Of a DNA stretch of 49,840 nt, positions 20,881 through 34,550 are shown one piece after another. Numbering within the stretch: the stretch's first letter is position 1; every line of letters starts with the position of its first letter. The notes beneath the pieces are model-generated. The model was not told where the DNA came from and ran no database searches. It worked only from the letters and a program-made list of their open reading frames with translations. The DNA lies in NCBI GenBank assembly GCA_040882425.1, contig JBBEBJ010000242.1, forward strand, positions 1-49,840, read 5' to 3'. Source of the stretch: Chloroflexota bacterium. GTDB taxonomy: Bacteria > Chloroflexota > Limnocylindria > Limnocylindrales > CSP1-4. The position numbers and the translations under genes were made by a program.

Positions 20881-21633
20881 ATGACAGAAGCAAGGCCGTT
20901 TGTGATCCTGCCTGCGATCGACCTGCGCGGCGGCCGGGTCGTCCGGCTCCGGCAGGGGGATTTCGCCCGGGAAATCACCTACAGCGACGACCCGGTCGAG
21001 GTCGCGACAAGGTTTGCGGAGGCGGGAGCGCAATGGCTGCACGTCGTCGACCTGGACGGGGCTCGAGCGGGGGTCCCGGCGCACGGTGCCGCCATCGCCG
21101 CGATCATTGCTGCGGTCGGCGATCGGGCGAAGGTCGAGGTGGCGGGCGGTCTCCGGAACGAAGGCTCGGTCGCGTCCGCGCTCGAAATGGGAGCGGCTCG
21201 TGCCGTCGTGGGGACCACCGCGCTGACCGATCCGGCGTTCGCGGCGCAGATCGTCAGGACCCATGGTCGTGAGCGGATCGCCGTGTCAATCGACGTCCAG
21301 GGCGGTCGGGCCTTCGGCCATGGCTGGACGAACGACACGGCAAGCGTGGATGCGACGGTCGCCATCGAACGACTCGCCGACGCGGGCGTGGCGACGTTCG
21401 AAGTGACGTCGATTGACCGGGATGGCCTCCTCGAAGGCCCGGATCTCGATCTCTACGAGCGACTCGTTGCCCTCGATCGCGGCGCGATCATCGCGTCAGG
21501 AGGCATTCGAACCGGCCAGGACTTCGAGGCGGTGAGGGTGCGGGGCTGCACCGGTGCCATCGTCGGGCGCGCGATCTACGAGGGTCGACTCGACCTGAAA
21601 GCTGTGTTGTCGCCTACCGAGCCACAGGCGTGA
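20881..21633 (+). CDS. hisA: Phosphoribosylformimino-5-aminoimidazole carboxamide ribotide isomerase (HisA/PriA type)
   Basis: ILPAIDLRGGRVVRLRQGDF..WLHVVDLDGA..VEVAGGLR..AVVGTTAL..TSIDRDGLLEGPD..ASGGI is the HisA barrel signature. Confidence 0.93.
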   Translation: MTEARPFVILPAIDLRGGRVVRLRQGDFAREITYSDDPVEVATRFAEAGAQWLHVVDLDGARAGVPAHGAAIAAIIAAVGDRAKVEVAGGLRNEGSVASALEMGAARAVVGTTALTDPAFAAQIVRTHGRERIAVSIDVQGGRAFGHGWTNDTASVDATVAIERLADAGVATFEVTSIDRDGLLEGPDLDLYERLVALDRGAIIASGGIRTGQDFEAVRVRGCTGAIVGRAIYEGRLDLKAVLSPTEPQA

Positions 21634-21655
21634 CCAGGCCCCAGGCCGGAGTCGC

Positions 21656-21709
21656 GGGATCACGCACTGGATCGGGATCACGCACTGGATCGGGATCACG
21701 CACTGGATA
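21656..21709. repeat. Tandem repeat, 18-bp unit x3 (GGGATCACGCACTGGATC)
   Basis: Units at 21656-21673, 21674-21691 and 21692-21709; the last base of unit 3 differs. It starts 23 nt after the hisA stop and abuts the palindrome array. Confidence 0.9.
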
Positions 21710-21957
21710 TTGCCGTGCGAGCAACCAATCGCCGACCCTTGCCGCGGCAGCAAACAAACGCGAGCGGAGGCGCCTCATGTCCTCAAGGCGTGTCACCGAT
21801 TTGCCCCGCCGGCAAGGGATTCAAGCCGCGGTCCACGTCTGACGTCGAGAACACTCCCCAGTTGCTGCAGGTGCAACAGATCGAGTCAGGAGACCGGCCA
21901 CGGCACGTTTGTTTGCTCCGGCAGCAAGGCCAACCCCTGATCTTGCGGCTGCGGCAA
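21710..21957. repeat. Array of six TTGC-N7-GCAA palindromes (module copy 1)
   Basis: Sites at 21710-24, 21739-53, 21801-15, 21862-76, 21913-27 and 21943-57. Gaps between sites are 14, 47, 46, 36 and 15 nt. The 4+4 arms are invariant and the N7 cores are unrelated. The start of track ORF 21710 (TTG) confirms the coordinate register. Confidence 0.85.
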
Positions 21958-21987
21958 CGGATGACGTCACATGACGACTCGTGCGTA

Positions 21988-22043
21988 CCGCCAGGTCTCG
22001 GTCAGTGGCCCGGCGCGCCGCCAGGTCCCGCTCAGTGGCCCGG
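21988..22043. repeat. Imperfect 26-bp tandem duplication spanning the EF-G-like stop codon
   Basis: CCGCCAGGTCTCGGTCAGTGGCCCGG (21988-22013) and CCGCCAGGTCCCGCTCAGTGGCCCGG (22018-22043) differ at 2 positions. The second copy contains the gene's last codons and its TGA. Confidence 0.7.
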
Positions 22044-24128
22044 AACGTGGCCGCCGGCCGCCTCGATCTCCTTGCGGTGCGAGTCGATCACCTTCTCGGC
22101 GATGTGGCCCGGGACGTCGTCGTAGTGGTCCAGCGTCATCGTGAATGAGCCGCGTCCCTGCGCAAGCGACCGGAGCTCCGTCGCGTAACTGGACATCTCG
22201 GCGAGCGGGACATGCGCGCTGATGACCTGCATGTCGTCGGCCGTGTCCATGCCCAGCACGCGACCGCGACGGCCGTTGAGGTCGCGGTTGACCTCGCCCA
22301 TGTAGGCCTCGGGAACCCGGATCTCCACCGCCATGATGGGCTCGAGGAGCGCCGGCCTGGCGTGCTGGACGCCGTCCTTGAGGGCCATGGAGGCGGCGAT
22401 CTTGAATGCCATCTCGTTGGAGTCGACCGGATGGAACGATCCGTCATAGAGCGTGGCCCGGAAGTCGGACAGGGGATACCCGGCGAGCACGCCGCCCTCG
22501 GCGGCCTCGCGGATGCCCTTCTCGACGCCGGCGAAGAACCCCTTGGGCACCGAACCACCCACGATTCGTTCGGCGAACTCGACCCCGCCATCCGGGTTCG
22601 GCTCGAGCTCCAGCCAGACGTCGCCGAACATGCCGTGGCCGCCGGTCTGCTTCTTGTAGCGCCCATGGACCTGGGTCTTGCCGCGGATCGTCTCCTTGTA
22701 CGGCACCCGCGGCGTGTGGGTCGCGATCGCGGCCCCGAACTTGCGCTTGAGCCGCTCGATGATGACCGCGGTGTGGGCCTCGCCCATGGTGCGCAGGACC
22801 TGCTCGCCGGTCGTGCTGCGCTCCAGCCGAACCGTCGGCTCCTCCTCGAGCATTCGGGCCAACGCGGGGCCCATCTTGTCCAGGTCGCCCTTGCTCTGTG
22901 GCTCGATGGCGACGGTCAACGACGGCGCGGGGAACTCGAGCGGCGGCAGCGTGAGTGGCTTCTCGCGGACACTGATCGTGTCACCTGTCTCGGTGACCGA
23001 CAGCTTGGCGACGGCCCCGATCTCGCCGGCTTTGAGCTCGCCGATTGGCTCCTGGTCCTTGCCGTGGAGCAGCAGGAGCTGCCCGATCCGCTCGTCCTCG
23101 CCACGGGTCGAATTCCAGACGTGGGCCTGCGAGCGCAGGGTCCCGGACAGGACGCGCAGGTAGGTCAGCCGACCGACGAACGGATCGGCCGTCGTCTTGA
23201 AGACCCGGGCCAGGAGCGGCCCGGATTCGTCGGCGGGCACCTCGACAGTCTCGCCGGACTTGTCGGTCGCCCTGACCGGTGCCTCGTCCGCGGGGGAGGG
23301 CAGGTAGCGTACGATCGCGTCGAGGAGGGCGCGCAGGCCCATCCCCTTGGTCGCGCTCCCGACGAGGACCGGCGCCAGCACCGAATCCTTGACGCCCTTG
23401 CGCAGGCATGCCTCGAGCTCCGGGTCGGAGATCTCCTCGCCCTCGAGGTACTTCGTCAGCACGTCGTCGTCGGCCTCGGCGGCGGCCTCGAGCAGCTGGT
23501 CCCGACGTCGAGCGACCTCGTCCGCGAGCGCGTCCGGGATCGGGATCTCGACTTCCTTGCCGCCCTCGAGACGCCAGGCCTTGCGGTGGACGAGGTCGAC
23601 GTAGCCCTCGAATGTCTCTGCCGCTCCGATCGCCAGGTGGATCGGCGCGATCTTGGTGCCAAAGGTCGAGCGCAGTGCATCGAGCGCGGCCGACGGGTCG
23701 GCGTTCTCACGGTCGCTCTTGTTGATAAAGAAACACGCCGCGGTGCCGGTCGAACGTCCCAGCGCCACGGCGTGTTCGAGGCCGGCCTCAACGCCGGTCG
23801 AGGCGTCCATCACGAAGAGGACCCCGTCGGTGGCGGCAAACCCTTCGATCACGTCGGCGATGAAGTCGGGATACCCCGGGGTATCGACAAGCGAGGTTCG
23901 GGTCCCGTCCGACTCGAACGTCCCGACCGCGAGACTGAGCGACGCCCTCCGCTTCTGTTCCTCGGGCTCGAAGTCGAGGTGCGCGGTGCCGTCGTCGACG
24001 CGCCCCAGCCGCGTGATCGCACCGGCCCGGAACAGGAGCTGCTCGGCCAGCGTCGTCTTGCCGGCGCCGGCGTGACCCGCCAGGACGACGCTGCGAAGGT
24101 GTGGGAGATCGACGCTCTTCATGGTCAT
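22032..24128 (-). CDS. Elongation factor G-like translational GTPase (EF-G paralog)
   Basis: G-domain motifs AGHAGAGKTT, DTPGYPDF and NKSD. EF-G domains II-V follow (..GRLTYLRVLSGTL.., ..EPIMAVEIRVPEAYMGEV..). ATG 24128 (MTMKS..) has AGGAAGGA upstream. Confidence 0.9.
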   Translation of the reverse strand: MTMKSVDLPHLRSVVLAGHAGAGKTTLAEQLLFRAGAITRLGRVDDGTAHLDFEPEEQKRRASLSLAVGTFESDGTRTSLVDTPGYPDFIADVIEGFAATDGVLFVMDASTGVEAGLEHAVALGRSTGTAACFFINKSDRENADPSAALDALRSTFGTKIAPIHLAIGAAETFEGYVDLVHRKAWRLEGGKEVEIPIPDALADEVARRRDQLLEAAAEADDDVLTKYLEGEEISDPELEACLRKGVKDSVLAPVLVGSATKGMGLRALLDAIVRYLPSPADEAPVRATDKSGETVEVPADESGPLLARVFKTTADPFVGRLTYLRVLSGTLRSQAHVWNSTRGEDERIGQLLLLHGKDQEPIGELKAGEIGAVAKLSVTETGDTISVREKPLTLPPLEFPAPSLTVAIEPQSKGDLDKMGPALARMLEEEPTVRLERSTTGEQVLRTMGEAHTAVIIERLKRKFGAAIATHTPRVPYKETIRGKTQVHGRYKKQTGGHGMFGDVWLELEPNPDGGVEFAERIVGGSVPKGFFAGVEKGIREAAEGGVLAGYPLSDFRATLYDGSFHPVDSNEMAFKIAASMALKDGVQHARPALLEPIMAVEIRVPEAYMGEVNRDLNGRRGRVLGMDTADDMQVISAHVPLAEMSSYATELRSLAQGRGSFTMTLDHYDDVPGHIAEKVIDSHRKEIEAAGGHVPGH

Positions 24129-24218
24129 CGGTTTCGTCGGTCCTTCCTGCTGGTGGGGGACACGGGACGTCCGGGGACGGGGGTGTAGCCATGATAGTCC
24201 GCTATACTCCGGCCCGCG

Positions 24219-24971
24219 ATGTCCGGTCATTCCAAGTGGTCCACGATCAAGCGTCAGAAGGGCGTGACTGACGCCAGGCGCGGTGCCCTCTTCACGAAGG
24301 TCGCCCGGGAGATCTCGGTGGCGGCTCGCCAGGGCGGCGGAGACCCAGATGCGAACTACCGGTTGCGCCTGGCGATCGAGAAGGCCCGCTCCGTCAACAT
24401 GCCGGCCGACAACATCAAGCGCACGATCGACAAGGCGACCGGCGGCGGCGAGGCCGATCAGTACGAGGAGATCGTCTACGAAGGCTACGGTCCGGGTGGC
24501 GTGGCCGTCCTCGTCGAGGCCCAGACCGACAACCGGAACCGGACGGCCGCCGAGGTTCGGTCGGTCTTCACCAAGGCCGGCGGCCAGCTGGCGGGCTCGG
24601 GGGCGGTGGCCTGGCAGTTCGAACCACGCGGCATGATCTCCGTCGCGCGCAACGGTGTGGATGTCGACGAGGTCACGCTCAGCGCGATCGACGCCGGCGC
24701 GGAGGACGTCGATACCGATGATGACGAGGTCATCGGGATCTACACGACGCCGGGCGAGCTCGAGGCGGTCCGCAGGGCGCTCGATGCCGCCGGGGTCGCC
24801 GTCGAGTCGGCCGAGGCGACGATGATCCCCAGGCAGACGGTGGATCTCGATTCGTCGAAGGCGCGGCAGGCGATGCGGCTGGTCGAGCTCCTCGAGGACC
24901 TCGATGACGTCCAGCGCGTGACGGCCAACTTCGAGATCCCCGAGGACGTGTTCGCCGAGGTCGCCGGGTGA
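24219..24971 (+). CDS. yebC: YebC/PmpR-family DNA-binding regulatory protein
   Basis: MSGHSKWSTIKRQKGVTDARRGALFTKVAREISVAARQGGGDPDANYRLRLAIEKAR..NMP is the canonical YebC N-terminus. Confidence 0.95.
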   Translation: MSGHSKWSTIKRQKGVTDARRGALFTKVAREISVAARQGGGDPDANYRLRLAIEKARSVNMPADNIKRTIDKATGGGEADQYEEIVYEGYGPGGVAVLVEAQTDNRNRTAAEVRSVFTKAGGQLAGSGAVAWQFEPRGMISVARNGVDVDEVTLSAIDAGAEDVDTDDDEVIGIYTTPGELEAVRRALDAAGVAVESAEATMIPRQTVDLDSSKARQAMRLVELLEDLDDVQRVTANFEIPEDVFAEVAG

Positions 24972-26197: not shown

Positions 26198-26674
26198 CTA
26201 CGGCCTCCGACCGGCCAACGCGTCGGCGTGGCGGCCGCGTGGATCGATCGAGGCACGTCCCGACCGCGCGGCGAGCTGGGCGAGCGACTCAGCGTCGAGC
26301 ACCTCGAGCATCGCGTCTCGGACGTCGATCATCACGTCGCGCAACGGACAGGTCGCCTCATCCGGGCACGAGCACGGCTCGTAGTAACGCAGCGAGACGC
26401 AGCTCAACGGTGCGAGCGCGCCGTCGAGCAGCCGCACAACCCGACCGATCGACACGCCCGAGGCCTGGGTCGCGAGCGCGTAGCCGCCATGGGTGCCGAG
26501 CGTCGTTCGGACGATCCCGGCGTGCTTGAGCGTGGCCATGATCTGTTCGAGGAACTTTGCCGGCAGTCGGTTGCGGGTGGCGAGCGTCGTCAACGGGATC
26601 GGGCCCTGACCCTCGTGACGGACCAGGTCGACCAACGCGCGTAGGCCGTATTCGGACCGGCGGGAGAGACGCAC
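26198..26674 (-). CDS. Rrf2-family transcriptional regulator with a Cys cluster
   Basis: MRLSRRSEYGLRALVDLV.......PLTTLA.....P.KFLEQIM..LK.AGIV....G..GGY.LA is the Rrf2 winged-HTH signature. Four cysteines occur in ..LSCVSLRYYEPCSCPDEATCPL.., which is compatible with Fe-S ligation. It lies antisense between ruvA and ruvB. Confidence 0.88.
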   Translation of the reverse strand: MRLSRRSEYGLRALVDLVRHEGQGPIPLTTLATRNRLPAKFLEQIMATLKHAGIVRTTLGTHGGYALATQASGVSIGRVVRLLDGALAPLSCVSLRYYEPCSCPDEATCPLRDVMIDVRDAMLEVLDAESLAQLAARSGRASIDPRGRHADALAGRRP

Positions 26675-31073: not shown

Positions 31074-32323
31074 CTACCAGCGGGACGCGAGGTACGCCGC
31101 GTCGAGCGCCACGCCCGCCAGGTTGGCCGAGGCGTTGTTGTGCTGCCATAGGAGGCCAATGAATGTCAGTCCGGGCATCTCGCTGACGCCGCGGACGTGG
31201 TGCGGCGTGCCGAACTCGTCGAGGATCGGCAGGTCCAGCCAGTCGTAGTCCGGGGCATACCCTGTGGTCCAGAGGACCGTCGAGATGCCCTCGGCGGCGA
31301 GATCGAGCTCGGTGAGCCCGGGCGTTCGAACGAGGGCCAGGCACGGTCATCGGGTCCGACCTCGATGCCTGCCTTGTCGGCGAACGTGTCGCACAGCGAT
31401 CGGAAGCGCACGTCGAAGAACTCGTCCGCGAACCGCAGGTTCTCGCTGAGGTCCGGAGCGAACTCCGCGTGCTCGCCATGTGCGCCGGCAAATCGCCCGA
31501 CGAGCCGTAGCCCGTCGATCGCCATTTGCCGCAGGTTCGTGTCGTGCCCACCGTTGTGCCCCGACAGGTGCGGATTGCACGCGAACCGGAGCCGGCGCTC
31601 AGGGAACTGGTCGACCGTGGGGAGGGATGTGCCGAAATCCCCGCCTCGGGCGGCGAGCTGGCGGATCCACCAGAACGAGTCGTAGCCGCGATATCGGCGC
31701 GGCGCGCGACCGCACCGACCGACCGACAGCGTGACCTCCCGGCCGGCCGCCTGGAGCTCCTCGGCCAGCTGAACGCCGGTCTGCCCGGAGCCCACGATCA
31801 GCACGCCACCCGGCGGCAATTGCGTCTCGTTCCGGTAGGCATGCGCGTGGATCTGGGTGACCCGCGGCGAGAGGCCCACCGCCGCGGGCGGGACCTTGGG
31901 CCGGTGGAACGCACCGGTCGCGACGATCACCTCGTCCGCATCGACCGGACCCTCTGACGTCTTGAGGTGGAAGCGGCGGCCGCCGGAGCCGTCCGCGGAC
32001 AGGCGCTGGACCTCAGTCGTGCGGCTGACCGGTGCCCCGATCACGTCCTCATACCGGCGCATCCGGGCCGCCACCGCATCCCGGGGCATGAAGCTGTCGG
32101 GATCCGGATCGTCGTCCGGAAAGCCGGGCAACCCGGTCGTCCAGTTCGGACCGACCAGCACGAAGTTGTCCCAGCGGTCCTGCCAGCCGCCACCCAGGGT
32201 CTCCCGCCGATCGAGTACCACGTGTGGCCGTCCGGCGGTCTGGAGGTGCCAGCTCATGATCAGGCCGGCCTGGCCCGCCCCGATGACGACCGTCTCGATC
32301 GACCGCGGCAGTTCGTCCTTCAT
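31074..32323 (-). pseudogene. Flavin-containing (CzcO/FMO-like) NAD(P)-binding monooxygenase, reading frame interrupted near 31317-31322
   Basis: N-terminal [10 protein letters not shown] and a second dinucleotide motif IVGSGQTGVQLAEEL. After ..AWPSFERP the track frame becomes low-complexity. The adjacent frame reads GLTELDLAAEGISTVLWTTGYAPDYDWLDLPILDEFGTPHHVRGVSEMPGLTFIGLLWQHNNASANLAGVALDAAYLASRW and stops at 31076-31074. The frame switch occurs at a CCCGGG run. Confidence 0.8.
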
Positions 32324-32396
32324 TCGAGAAGTCTCGCATCGGACCGAACCCCAAGCCAAGCCCGAGCCTTGCTTCGGCGCCGCGCCAGCATGTTTC

Positions 32397-32615
32397 TTGC
32401 ACCGGCCGCAAGAAAAGGGCATGGTCTTGCGGCGGACGCAAGCAAACACGGTTCTGTCGCTCCACCGGGCCGATTCCTTGCGCGAGCGGCAAGAAACGGC
32501 CCTGATCGGCTCGCTGATACCGCGAGTTCCAACGCTCCTTGCTCCCTGGGCAAATTCGCAACCGCTGTCGTGGAGCCACCGAGTCGCTGCAGGCGTTTAC
32601 TTGCACCCGGGGCAA
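32397..32615. repeat. Array of five TTGC-N7-GCAA palindromes (module copy 2, opposite orientation to copy 1)
   Basis: Sites at 32397-411, 32427-41, 32478-92, 32539-53 and 32601-15. Gaps are 15, 36, 46 and 47 nt, exactly the reverse order of copy 1. The first site extends to a perfect 8-bp-arm palindrome TTTCTTGC-N7-GCAAGAAA (32393-32415). The start of track ORF 32539 (TTG) confirms the register. Confidence 0.85.
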
Positions 32616-32712
32616 GACCGGCGCGTGCGGGACCGGCGCGGACGTAGCGAGGCGCGGGCAAGACGGGCGCGCGCGGGCGGGGCAAGACCGGCGCGGGCGG
32701 GACCGGCGCCGG
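32609..32712. repeat. GC-rich direct repeats (GGCAAGACSGGCGCG x3; about 31-bp unit x2)
   Basis: GGGGCAAGACCGGCGCGTGCGGGACCGGCGC (32609-32639) recurs as GGGGCAAGACCGGCGCGGGCGGGACCGGCGC (32679-32709). A third partial copy, GGGCAAGACGGGCGCG, starts at 32656. Confidence 0.6.
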
Positions 32713-32789
32713 CGGCGGGCCAGCCGGGATGTCGGACCCAAGCCGGCCCACTCCGCTCCGCCCAGGGTTGCGGCCGCGCAAACCCATGG

Positions 32790-32818
32790 TTGCCGTTCTG
32801 GCCCTCGCGCCGTAGGCT
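32790..32818 (+). promoter_or_regulatory. Candidate sigma-70-type promoter for rny
   Basis: TTGCCG (32790-95), a 17-nt spacer, then TAGGCT (32813-18). This would give a roughly 200-nt leader. The -10 element lies inside the palindrome CCGTAG-G-CTACGG (32810-22). Confidence 0.3.
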
Positions 32819-33020
32819 ACGGGGCAGATCATTCGGCGCCGTTCGCGCGGCGCTACCACGCAAGTCCGGCGTCGATCGCGGCCCATTCATCCTGGTGGGA
32901 GCCGTCTTCATCGATGGGGCGGCGAGCTCCAAGGCGGCCTCGCCTCACACCCACCGGCGATCGCGCCATCGAATAATGAGGCGTCCGGCCGCACAACCCG
33001 GTCCGGATGGGAGGACACCG

Positions 33021-34550
33021 ATGGACATAGCGACGCTCGCGGTGGTAGCCCTCGTGGCCGCCGCCGGCGGAGCCGTACTCGGCGCAGTCGTGCGCAGCTT
33101 CTGGGCCTCGCAGACGATCAAGGCGGCCACCGCCGAGGCCCGCCGGATCGAGGCCGAAGCCCGGGCCCGCCAGAAGGAGCTGATCCTCGAGGCGAAGGAC
33201 GAGAAGCTCCGGATGCAGCGCGAGGCGGAGGAAGAGGCGCGCGCCAGGCGCGGCGAGCTGTCGGGCCTCGAGAGCCGGCTTCTCCAGCGTGACGAGCAGC
33301 TCGACCAGCGCAGCGACATGCTCGAACAGCGTGACCGCAAGCTCCTGGATCGCGAACGCGAGCTGGACAAGACCCGCGACGAGCTCGCCAGGGCCCACGG
33401 TGAACAGGTTGCCGCGCTCGAGCGGGTGTCGGGGATGTCCGCCGTCGAAGCGCGAACGATCCTGATCGAGGCGGTCCGCGAGGAGGCCGAACACGACGCG
33501 GTCAAGCTCGCCCGGGCAATCGAGCGGAGCGCCCGCGAGGAAGCACAGGACAAGGCCCGCGACATCGTGATCACCGCGATGCAACGCGTCGCCGCCGACC
33601 ACACGGCCGAGCACACGGTTTCGGTCGTTCACTTGCCGTCGGACGAGATGAAGGGCCGCATCATCGGCCGGGAGGGTCGCAATATCCGCGCCCTCGAGCA
33701 GGCGACCGGGATCGACCTGATCATCGACGACACGCCCGAAACCGTGATCCTGTCGGGCTTCGACCCCGTTCGACGGGAGATCGCCAGGCTCGCCATCACC
33801 AAGCTGATCGCCGACGGCCGGATCCACCCGGGCCGGATCGAGGAGGTCGTGACCAAGGCCCGTGCCGAGGTCGACGTGGTCATGCGCCAGGCCGGCGAGC
33901 AGGCTGCGTACGACGCCGGCGTCCCGGGCCTGCCAGCCGACATCATCAAGACGCTGGGCCGGCTCAAGTTCCGCACGAGCTACGGCCAGAACGTGCTCAA
34001 CCACGTGGTCGAGACGAGCCACCTGGCCGCGATCATCGCCGCCGAGATCGGGGCGGACGTCCAGGTCGCCAAGATGGGCGGACTGCTCCACGACATCGGC
34101 AAGGCGCTCGACCACGAGATCGAGGGCCCGCACGCGGCAATCGGGGCGAGCCTCGCCCAGCGCCACAACCTGTCGCCCAAGGTCATCAACGCCATCGCGG
34201 CCCACCACCAGGAAGTCGAGTACACGTGCCTCGAGGCGCCCATCGTTCAGATCGCCGACGCGATCAGCGCGTCGCGCCCCGGCGCCCGTGGCGAGTCGAT
34301 GGACACCTACGTCAAGCGGCTCGAGGATCTCCAGGCGATCGCCGAGAGTTTCGGTGGCGTCGAGAAGTCCTTTGCGGTGCAGGCCGGTCGCGAGGTCCGG
34401 ATCCTGGTCCGTCCCGAGGAGATCGACGACCTCACGGCCAGCCGGCTCGCCCGCGACATCGTCAAGAAGATCGAGGAACAGCTGACCTACCCGGGCCAGA
34501 TCAAGGTGACGGTCATCCGCGAGACGCGGGCCGTGGAGTACGCGAAGTGA
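33021..34550 (+). CDS. rny: Ribonuclease Y
   Basis: N-terminal TM helix, a coiled coil, a KH domain ([31 protein letters not shown]) and an HD domain (..[30 protein letters not shown]). ATG 33021 has GGGAGGA upstream. The track's 897-aa ORF is an upstream over-extension. Confidence 0.96.

Follow-up and report, generated by a model that had tools for sequence, protein, structure and literature searches.

Helically phased TTGC-N7-GCAA palindrome arrays dispersed in Limnocylindria-type Chloroflexota genomes are candidate docking sites for a DNA-binding protein

The DNA analyzed here is a 49,840-nucleotide (nt) stretch of core chromosome from a Chloroflexota bacterium of the Limnocylindrales (assembly GCA_040882425.1, contig JBBEBJ010000242.1, positions 1 to 49,840), hereafter called the window. 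It runs from infC-rplT-pheST through mutS2, PBP1, tyrS, and his genes to a first intergenic cluster of palindromes (array 1), and from there through an EF-G paralogue (minus strand), yebC, ruvC, ruvA, an Rrf2 gene (minus), ruvB, tgt, recA, recX, and a monooxygenase-like gene (minus) to a second cluster (array 2), beyond which lie rny, ymdB, terC, miaB, miaA, and hflX. Array 1 is located between the convergent hisA-like gene (20881-21633, plus) and the EF-G paralogue, and array 2 between the divergent starts of the monooxygenase-like gene and rny (33021-34550, plus). A first-pass annotation, made from the letters of the DNA alone, had correctly labeled this divergent spacer FMO/rny and had described its palindromes as a mirrored, diverged copy of those in array 1.

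Both arrays are built from the palindrome TTGC-N7-GCAA (TTGCNNNNNNNGCAA), referred to here as a box. The window contained 11 exact sites; dinucleotide-preserving shuffles gave 0.22 on average and never more than 2, so that none of 100 reached 11. All 11 sites were confined to the two clusters, and when one mismatch was permitted just 5 further scattered sites appeared, which is not above chance. The gaps between boxes were 14, 47, 46, 36, and 15 nt in array 1 and 15, 36, 46, and 47 nt in array 2; the five sites of array 2 and both gap series had been given exactly to the nucleotide in the first-pass annotation, which had also proposed that array 2 is array 1 read on the opposite strand. The spacing confirms this, array 1 being two-fold symmetric (a pair, two inner boxes, and a pair) with a minus-strand reading that matches array 2, and when 32380-32720 was formally aligned with the reverse complement of 21640-21975, the five boxes all fell in register. 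In the multiple alignment of the two arrays, 40 of 40 arm positions were identical, while identity at non-arm positions was 48%, to be set against the approximately 0.29 to 0.33 that we calculated from base composition as the random identity expected at the G+C content of the window. The uniform high identity that would have indicated a plain recent duplication was therefore not seen, and the earlier estimate of identical arms and filler about half identical was accurate. In array 2, the right arm of box b is doubled and a doubled left arm precedes box e as its inverted counterpart; in array 1, box b with its flank and an inverted partner form a 24-nt inverted repeat (21737-21760 and 21906-21929) that is 88% complementary. 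The box centers in the window include CGTGCGA and ACCGGCC.

We scanned one genome per species (596 Gb) for three boxes with gaps of 13 to 17 and 30 to 60 nt, a pattern for which our own arithmetic (24 fixed bases, 155 gap combinations) gave a chance expectation well under one match, and obtained at least 115 loci. These matches were heterogeneous and also included tandem repeats (Actinomycetota, Sorangium), BetR-type operator triplets (Bacteroidota), and coding repeats. At least 34 arrays, comprising at least 168 sites, had a common layout in Limnocylindria-type Chloroflexota metagenome-assembled genomes (MAGs); among the scan matches listed, 33 arrays had the layout of the window and came from MAGs of about 70% G+C. 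The labels of the array-bearing MAGs were Chloroflexia, Limnocylindria/Limnocylindrales, Thermomicrobiales, Anaerolineaceae, or Chloroflexota. In the family layout, a pair of boxes 30 bp apart is followed by boxes at approximately 51, 61, and 62 bp. The doubled arm GCAA[GA]CAA[AC] comes after box b and its inverse, GTTG[TC]TTGC, ahead of the last box, a relation seen in most members, and GATTCC often stands before the inner boxes. Array 1 and loci L069 and L079 have the complete form, which is two-fold symmetric and has a box pair at either end. The core TTGC-N7-GCAA is present in all 168 sites by construction of the search; a position table over these sites showed a symmetric extension to TTnCTTGC-N7-GCAAGnAA, with TT at -4/-3 and AA at +17/+18. 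The box center read RTCnGAY in many genomes and was unconstrained in the lineage of the window.

Several copies were present per genome (at least six in MFD09964.bin.1.240 and at least three each in MFD09212.bin.2.111 and swi_bin.62). Arrays in one MAG were found at well-separated coordinates, and one array was found per 8-kb locus fetched from other genomes. Their locations were unrelated, rpoD, uvrB (67 nt off in L035), and pgi being among the neighbors, and the arrays were intergenic and frequent at gene 3' ends. We conclude that the array family is real and, as judged from its sequences, under selection.

The distances between boxes were quantized. Adjacent start-to-start steps across the at least 34 arrays were 29 to 31 (38 cases), 40 to 41 (5), 50 to 51 (34), 60 to 62 (43), and 71 to 72 (3), counts that are not independent events, since homologous arrays share ancestry. 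Larger steps of 92, 102, 112 to 114, and 124 were sums left after one box had decayed, and the sole step outside the series was one of 19 nt between two nearly abutting boxes in L074. A linear fit gave 10.4 bp per increment (10.2 when forced through the origin) with a residual standard deviation of 0.5 bp. The search pattern allowed the second step to take any value from 45 to 75, and all 80 steps in that range fell on 7 of the 31 permitted values; the array steps were not multiples of 3. Orthologous or paralogous arrays differed by whole turns, the third step being 61 in the window versus 40 in L081 and 51 in L003 versus 61 in L082, and steps of 61, 71, 72, and 92 were found in one MAG. With steps in increments of about 10.3 bp, all sites therefore lie on one face of B-DNA. 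We read these quantized steps as a constraint on double-stranded DNA and as the probable mark of proteins bound to one helix face.

Orthologous arrays made it possible to compare the arms and spacing with neutral positions. In L081, an array with steps of 30, 51, 40, and 61 occupies the same EF-G/hisA convergent spacer (protein identity 83% for EF-G and 65% for hisA), and in L166, whose recA protein is 98% identical to that of the window, an array with steps of 30, 51, 61, and 62 and single mismatches in boxes c and d lies at the same position upstream of rny. Identity of the window with L166 was 88% for the arms, 52% for the filler, and 77% for recA four-fold sites. Three further loci (L003, L039, and L082) carry an array directly after rpoD. 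Between L003 and L039, the rpoD four-fold degenerate sites were 64% identical and the non-arm array positions 44% identical, while the arms of boxes a to c were unchanged at 24 of 24 positions, as were the steps of 30 and 51. That arms and spacing stayed intact despite near-saturated neutral sites therefore shows purifying selection on arms and geometry, with the remainder drifting approximately neutrally. The same interpretation had been offered in the first-pass annotation from the two window copies, and the orthologous arrays in L081, L166, and L003/L039/L082 lend it support; the module does occur in relatives, and the earlier view that the second copy is not a recent duplication fits the 48% identity of the filler with all arms intact.

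The arrays are not fixed among relatives, however, as absence at the same loci was common. A metagenome scan with RecX yielded 80 loci (RecX identity 52 to 81%), among which the order EF-G, yebC, ruv, tgt, recA, recX, rny, ymdB was conserved and TTGC-N7-GCAA boxes were present in L166 alone. No box was found at the same locus in L198, L191, or L164, even with one mismatch, and in L200 and L220 more than 1 kb past the EF-G 3' end contained no array. Compared to L198, L191, and L164, the window has approximately 330 to 360 extra nt, made up of the array and a tandem-repeat block, and this block is present in L166. The rny leader of L198 is 92% identical to that of the window, though L198 is without the array. 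A scan of the 80 RecX loci for palindrome clusters of the form 4-N5..9-4 found no other such cluster, and the array-less relatives therefore carry no diverged version. The monooxygenase-like gene was absent in array-bearing L166 and present in array-less L198 and L191, and in L164 a remnant of about 200 nt was left of it. These comparisons indicate that the gene and the array were gained or lost independently of each other, and that the arrays themselves are gained and lost, with turnover between close relatives.

We consider it fairly probable that these are dispersed arrays of operators for a DNA-binding protein with two-fold symmetry, five or six dimers of which would assemble cooperatively and probably wrap the DNA. 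Each box would bind one homodimer of a trans-encoded helix-turn-helix (HTH) or winged-helix protein; the 3-turn pair would nucleate assembly, and the in-phase inner boxes would permit face-to-face contacts between dimers, so that about 220 to 250 bp could be bent or wrapped into one higher-order particle by an Lrp/FFRP-like or other oligomeric regulator or nucleoid-associated protein. Near promoters, the particle might act as an operator or upstream element (the monooxygenase-like gene and rny in the window, uvrB in L035). Between convergent gene ends, it could serve as a roadblock, topological barrier, or architectural element (EF-G/hisA in the window, rpoD in L003/L039/L082).

The closest published match to the box is the binding site of Ss-LrpB from Sulfolobus solfataricus, whose consensus TTGCAAAATTTGCAA equals TTGC-N7-GCAA, a 15-bp palindrome with four conserved bp per half-site (PMC1802622). 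At three regularly spaced 15-bp boxes, Ss-LrpB binds cooperatively as one dimer each and wraps about 100 bp of DNA (PMC1802622). SELEX with this protein gave TTGCAA[AAT/ATT]TTGCAA, and the defining form of the FFRP box is abcdeWWWedcba, with an A/T-only center (PMC2715240); the Lrp/FFRP family usually binds arrays of degenerate semi-palindromic targets (PMC1802622; PMC2715240). The array boxes have identical arms and arm spacing and likewise occur as several regularly spaced copies, and as in FFRP operators they are 13- to 15-bp palindromes with conserved 4- to 5-bp arms and symmetric flanks. They differ from Ss-LrpB sites in lacking the A/T-only center, in that the a-b pair alone is spaced by about 3 turns (29 to 31 bp) while the other steps span 4 to 7 turns (40 to 72 bp), all in phase, and in comprising five or six boxes over about 250 bp, two-fold symmetric, in several copies per genome and often between convergent genes. 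Furthermore, no AsnC/Lrp gene lies near the arrays, and the host is a bacterium of about 70% G+C, whereas Ss-LrpB is archaeal. In our leading model, the arrays would work like an Lrp-type wrapped array; that they are actual Lrp sites is unproven. The first-pass annotation had not recognized the architecture as any described element. For the box itself this did not hold, given the published Ss-LrpB consensus, but it did for the array family, as literature searches with motif strings returned no relevant paper and the family was not described there.

The TTGC-N7-GCAA core does not by itself identify a protein family, because in Bacteroidota the same core adjoins a BetR/XRE-type HTH gene. Fur-like or other winged-helix dimers would also be a fit for the 7-1-7 form TTGCRTC-N-GAYGCAA. 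Phased multi-operator regions for oligomeric regulators are known, as in E. coli Lrp at pap and ilvIH, NtrC, and the T-N11-A pairs of LysR-type regulators; each serves one promoter, usually beside the regulator gene. The arrays resemble them in having dimer boxes on one face, a 3-turn pair, and whole-turn spacing, and the TGC-N7-GCA of the arrays fits the LysR-type T-N11-A form. They differ in having no adjacent regulator gene, in being off promoters in many cases, and in being dispersed. Phased multi-operator arrays are thus known in kind, and what is new here is that they are dispersed, two-fold symmetric, and often away from promoters.

Several observations weigh against this operator-array reading. 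First, no array-binding protein was identified. Searches with jackhmmer over the open reading frames (ORFs) of the at least 115 loci and the window, using E. coli Lrp as the query, found no AsnC/Lrp gene beside any array or in the window, the single match being in L088, 3.4 kb from its array; an OxyR query found no LysR-type gene adjacent to the arrays and one LysR gene in all. An all-against-all BLAST of flanking ORFs recovered syntenic groups only, with no recurrent family, and a Pfam scan of 95 neighbors returned housekeeping enzymes, rpoD, and similar genes, with no recurring DNA-binding family. Second, the G+C-rich box center (RTCnGAY or unconstrained) is unlike the A+T-rich center of Lrp/FFRP sites. 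Third, approximately 8 to 9 of the 24 arrays with callable neighbors lay between convergent genes by rough ORF calls, which is unexpected for promoter operators. Fourth, absence from many close relatives at the same loci means that the role of the array is dispensable. Finally, the shared ancestry of homologous arrays limits what the step counts can carry.

An unlikely but more far-reaching version is that the arrays position a sequence-specific, nucleosome-like wrapped particle, with 10 to 12 protein subunits on about 220 to 250 bp, where Limnocylindria genes end and where highly expressed ones (EF-G, rpoD) converge, acting as an insulator, roadblock, or supercoil barrier rather than as a classical operator; the mirror-image pair in the window could then bracket ruvCAB-recA-recX as a 10-kb loop. 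If this were true, the arrays would represent a class of dispersed, selected, architecture-only cis-elements undescribed in bacteria. If the reading that we favor is right, the abundant uncultured soil and freshwater lineage Limnocylindria would have dispersed, strongly selected, phased docking arrays for a single DNA-binding protein. Many arrays are off promoters. They would open a way into global regulation or chromosome architecture for a group without genetics, and they would constitute a natural experiment on spacing constraints, in which indels are tolerated in whole helical turns only. As the arrays are easily recognized, they could be used as bait for the binder and to ask why some relatives have them.

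The main rival that remains, and one that we consider quite unlikely, is that the arrays are non-autonomous mobile or selfish repeats, similar to miniature inverted-repeat transposable elements (MITEs), to repetitive extragenic palindromic sequences and bacterial interspersed mosaic elements (REP/BIME), or to transposon ends, with boxes that bind a transposase or recombinase and with the window copies as two insertions. Several copies per genome, a complete element that is two-fold symmetric with terminal box pairs (array 1, L069, L079), the presence/absence polymorphism (the block of approximately 330 to 360 nt in the window and L166, not in L198, L191, or L164), the frequent location at gene 3' ends, and short tandem duplications at array edges would all suit such an element, as would the Geminicoccaceae MAGs, in which at least 20 copies of an element combine the same extended palindrome with a direct-repeat block. 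A recent burst would however have left near-identical copies, and old inert copies would have decayed arms, whereas within a genome only about 48% of the filler is shared and all arms are intact. Orthologous copies kept arms and spacing over near-saturated neutral divergence, which means selection on resident copies, and the steps vary in whole helical turns. No target-site duplication was seen on reading array 1, L069, or L079, no protein family recurred at nonsyntenic loci, and the commonest neighbor families included no transposase or integrase. The gene order between the window arrays was the same in array-less relatives, so the arrays do not bound a mobile segment.

The arrays share inverted ends with MITEs, but no target-site duplication was seen at array 1, L069, or L079 and the copies are dissimilar outside the arms. 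The units of REP/BIME elements are imperfect palindromes of 20 to 40 nt that fold into stable hairpins; within a genome they are closely alike, they are linked to a RAYT transposase, and architectural or topological proteins (IHF, gyrase) bind them. Like those of enterobacteria, the arrays are multicopy intergenic palindrome clusters, often at 3' ends or between convergent genes and variable between relatives; they differ in fixing only 4+4 bp, in negligible hairpin potential, in unrelated filler, and in helical phasing. Each window box has 4 to 5 pairable bp and the fold z-scores are -0.8 and -1.4, which does not amount to the REP/BIME stem-loop, and the 48% non-arm identity between the window copies falls short of the within-genome similarity of REP/BIME. 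A scan of viral contigs gave 48 matches, nearly all coding tandem repeats with steps in multiples of 15 on low-G+C contigs; none resembled the window arrays, and a phage origin was rejected.

It is very improbable that the arrays work as a pair in site-specific recombination or long-range looping, as accessory or synapsis sites whose interaction would invert or loop the 10.4-kb segment of EF-G, yebC, ruvCAB, tgt, recA, and recX. The two arrays are indeed inverted, lie 10,439 nt from each other, and turn their 30-51 ends toward the segment that they enclose, and res-type and accessory sites such as Tn3/gamma-delta res and cer/psi typically have several dimer sites in helical phase. However, no recombinase gene or domain was found in the window, and relatives with or without arrays share gene order and orientation, with no sign of inversion; a res-type or accessory site was rejected on these two grounds. 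Elsewhere, one array was present per fetched 8-kb locus, and arrays of the same MAG were well separated at unrelated places (rpoD, uvrB, pgi).

We assign a similarly low probability to the arrays encoding a structured noncoding RNA, or an RNA that titrates a protein via repeated short hairpins (CUUGC-N7-GCAAG). A 4- to 5-bp hairpin is possible at each box, and the arrays are positioned upstream of rny (array 2) and, on the same strand sense, downstream of EF-G (array 1). Against this, no Rfam match reached the gathering score anywhere in the window, the folding energy was no better than that of shuffles (z-scores -0.8 and -1.4), the arms do not covary but are invariant in sequence, and no motif is conserved in the loops. 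The box motif is strand-symmetric together with its flanks, spacing quanta of about 10.3 bp are a property of duplex DNA, RTCnGAY-centered palindromes would leave a loop of just 1 to 3 nt, and the rny promoter lies downstream of array 2. The first-pass annotation had left a nucleoprotein or a ribonucleoprotein scaffold as alternatives; the helical-repeat spacing points to the former, while the latter finds no backing in fold z-scores, Rfam, or covariation. A tRNA scan of the whole window was empty.

Other classes could be dismissed briefly: for CRISPR (clustered regularly interspaced short palindromic repeats), which has identical direct repeats of 23 to 47 nt, spacers of uniform length, and cas genes or a leader, the fixed part of the arrays is only a 4+4-bp palindrome, the gaps range from 14 to 47 nt, and the window contains no cas domains; for a plasmid-type centromere (parC/ParR-like), no ParA, ParB, or ParR domains were found in the scanned window ORFs or the commonest neighbor families; and an apparently conserved small ORF beside the rpoD arrays was an out-of-frame, R/S/P-rich artifact.

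The same core was also found in elements of other phyla. In Geminicoccaceae (Alphaproteobacteria), an element occurs at 22 or more loci across two MAGs (about 10 or more per genome), with direct repeats followed by palindromes and often right after stop codons. It resembles the Chloroflexota arrays in having five or six tGTTGCATCnGATGCAACa boxes, equal to the extended palindrome of the RTCnGAY Limnocylindria subtype, with variable filler and in multiple intergenic copies. It differs in its uniform 31- to 33-bp period, in always being joined to 4 to 5 direct repeats of GGGTTCGTTCGTCGA at about 21 to 22 nt, in its partly conserved filler (CAACCCGAG), and in phylum. No description of this element was found in the literature searched.

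In Bacteroidota (L005, L024, L036, L041, L051, L080, L098, L104), triplets of TTGC-N7-GCAA with A/T-rich centers, mostly in steps of 30/31 and 51, lie beside a BetR/XRE-type HTH gene of about 330 amino acids. A conserved lipoprotein gene encoding a CsgG-like domain (Pfam match in L041) is arranged divergently to it in L041 and L104. The triplets look like a self-contained operator-regulator system and, being local operators beside the HTH gene, were rejected as an account of the window arrays. Two Saprospiraceae MAGs (L006, L016, L026, L065, L068, L087, L094, L102) carry a near-identical module of about 200 nt at several loci each, with three AAAAGTTGC-N7-GCAACTTTT boxes (steps 31 and 51) and, after them, a TAnnTTTG promoter motif of the Bacteroidota type. 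A common 32-nt unit, TTGCTCGCTCCGCAAGCGTCGCTCGGTGCTCA, forms perfect tandem arrays of 4 to 9 copies at different loci of one Actinomycetota MAG (L007, L050, L101) and in a Jatrophihabitantaceae MAG (L062). The 32-nt arrays of Actinomycetota, Arthrobacter, and Sorangium contain the motif incidentally, being no more than perfect tandem repeats, and they do not explain the window.

The coordinates of the arrays and of the features around them are collected in Table 1.

Table 1. Features of the two palindrome arrays and their surroundings in the window, with loci of the Geminicoccaceae element
Feature	Coordinates	Strand	Remarks
Array 1	21710..21957	none	Six boxes, starting at 21710, 21739, 21801, 21862, 21913, 21943; start-to-start steps 29, 62, 61, 51, 30
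Array 2	32397..32615	none	Boxes a 32397, b 32427, c 32478, d 32539, e 32601; start-to-start steps 30, 51, 61, 62
Array 1 box b and flank (CCTTGCCGCGGCAGCAAACAAACG)	21737..21760		Inverted partner 21906-21929 (CGTTTGTTTGCTCCGGCAGCAAGG)
Array 2 box b with doubled right arm (TTGC-N7-GCAAGCAAAC)	32427..32447		
Doubled left arm preceding box e of array 2 (GCGTTTACTTGC)	32590..32604		Inverted counterpart of the doubled right arm of box b
Tandem repeat	21655..21708		18-nt unit (CGGGATCACGCACTGGAT) x3; abuts outer end (hisA side) of array 1
Tandem duplication	21983..22042		2 x 30 nt, 87% identical; between array 1 and EF-G; second copy spans the EF-G stop codon (22032-22034)
Tandem repeat block	32610..32713		15-nt unit GGGCAAGACCGGCGC, about 7 copies; begins within box e, in its right arm, and contains three further copies of the GCAAG half-box
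EF-G paralogue	22032..24230	minus	3' end 75 nt from the box pair of array 1
Flavin (FAD/NAD(P)) monooxygenase-like gene	31166..32339	minus	Start codon 32323 or 32339; distance to box a 58-74 nt
rny promoter-like elements and leader	32790..33020	plus	TTGCCG 32790-32795, 17-nt spacer, TAGGCT 32813-32818; context of the array, not part of it
Geminicoccaceae element loci			L017, L023, L038, L042, L044, L053, L055, L057, L058, L060, L063, L066, L070, L085, L086, L088, L093, L096, L100, L108, L110

Many family arrays were flanked by tandem repeats of variable sequence. Within 160 nt of family arrays, tandem repeats were enriched approximately 3-fold (1.49 per kb versus 0.52 per kb elsewhere in the loci), a comparison confounded by that of intergenic with coding DNA. 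Speculatively, flanking tandem duplications would fit replication slippage at a tightly bound complex.

Array 2 is located 175 to 400 bp upstream of the conserved rny promoter, both hexamers of which were kept in about 15 relatives, with TTGACC or TTGCCG as the -35 element. Promoter and terminator scans over both array spacers gave no matches. The rny 5' leader of about 200 nt was 90 to 92% identical in L166 and L198, above the 77% of recX coding DNA. It matched no Rfam family, and RNAalifold on 18 diverged sequences gave little consensus structure. The leader holds a GCGCCG-TTCG-CGCGGCGC hairpin and a CCGG...CCGGATGGGAGGA segment adjoining the ribosome-binding site.

The sole clear DNA-binding regulator encoded between the arrays is the Rrf2-family gene (26198-26674, minus), which lies in opposite orientation between ruvA and ruvB; no link between this gene and the arrays was found. 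Two further palindromes lie close to the arrays. Directly upstream of the rny -35 element and outside array 2 is a TTGC-N6-GCAA palindrome (TTGCGGCCGCGCAA, 32768-32781), with one base less than the array boxes. The sequence cggaTGACGTCAcaTGACGactcg at 21958-21980, located between array 1 and the end of EF-G, contains a perfect TGACGTCA palindrome followed by a half repeat.

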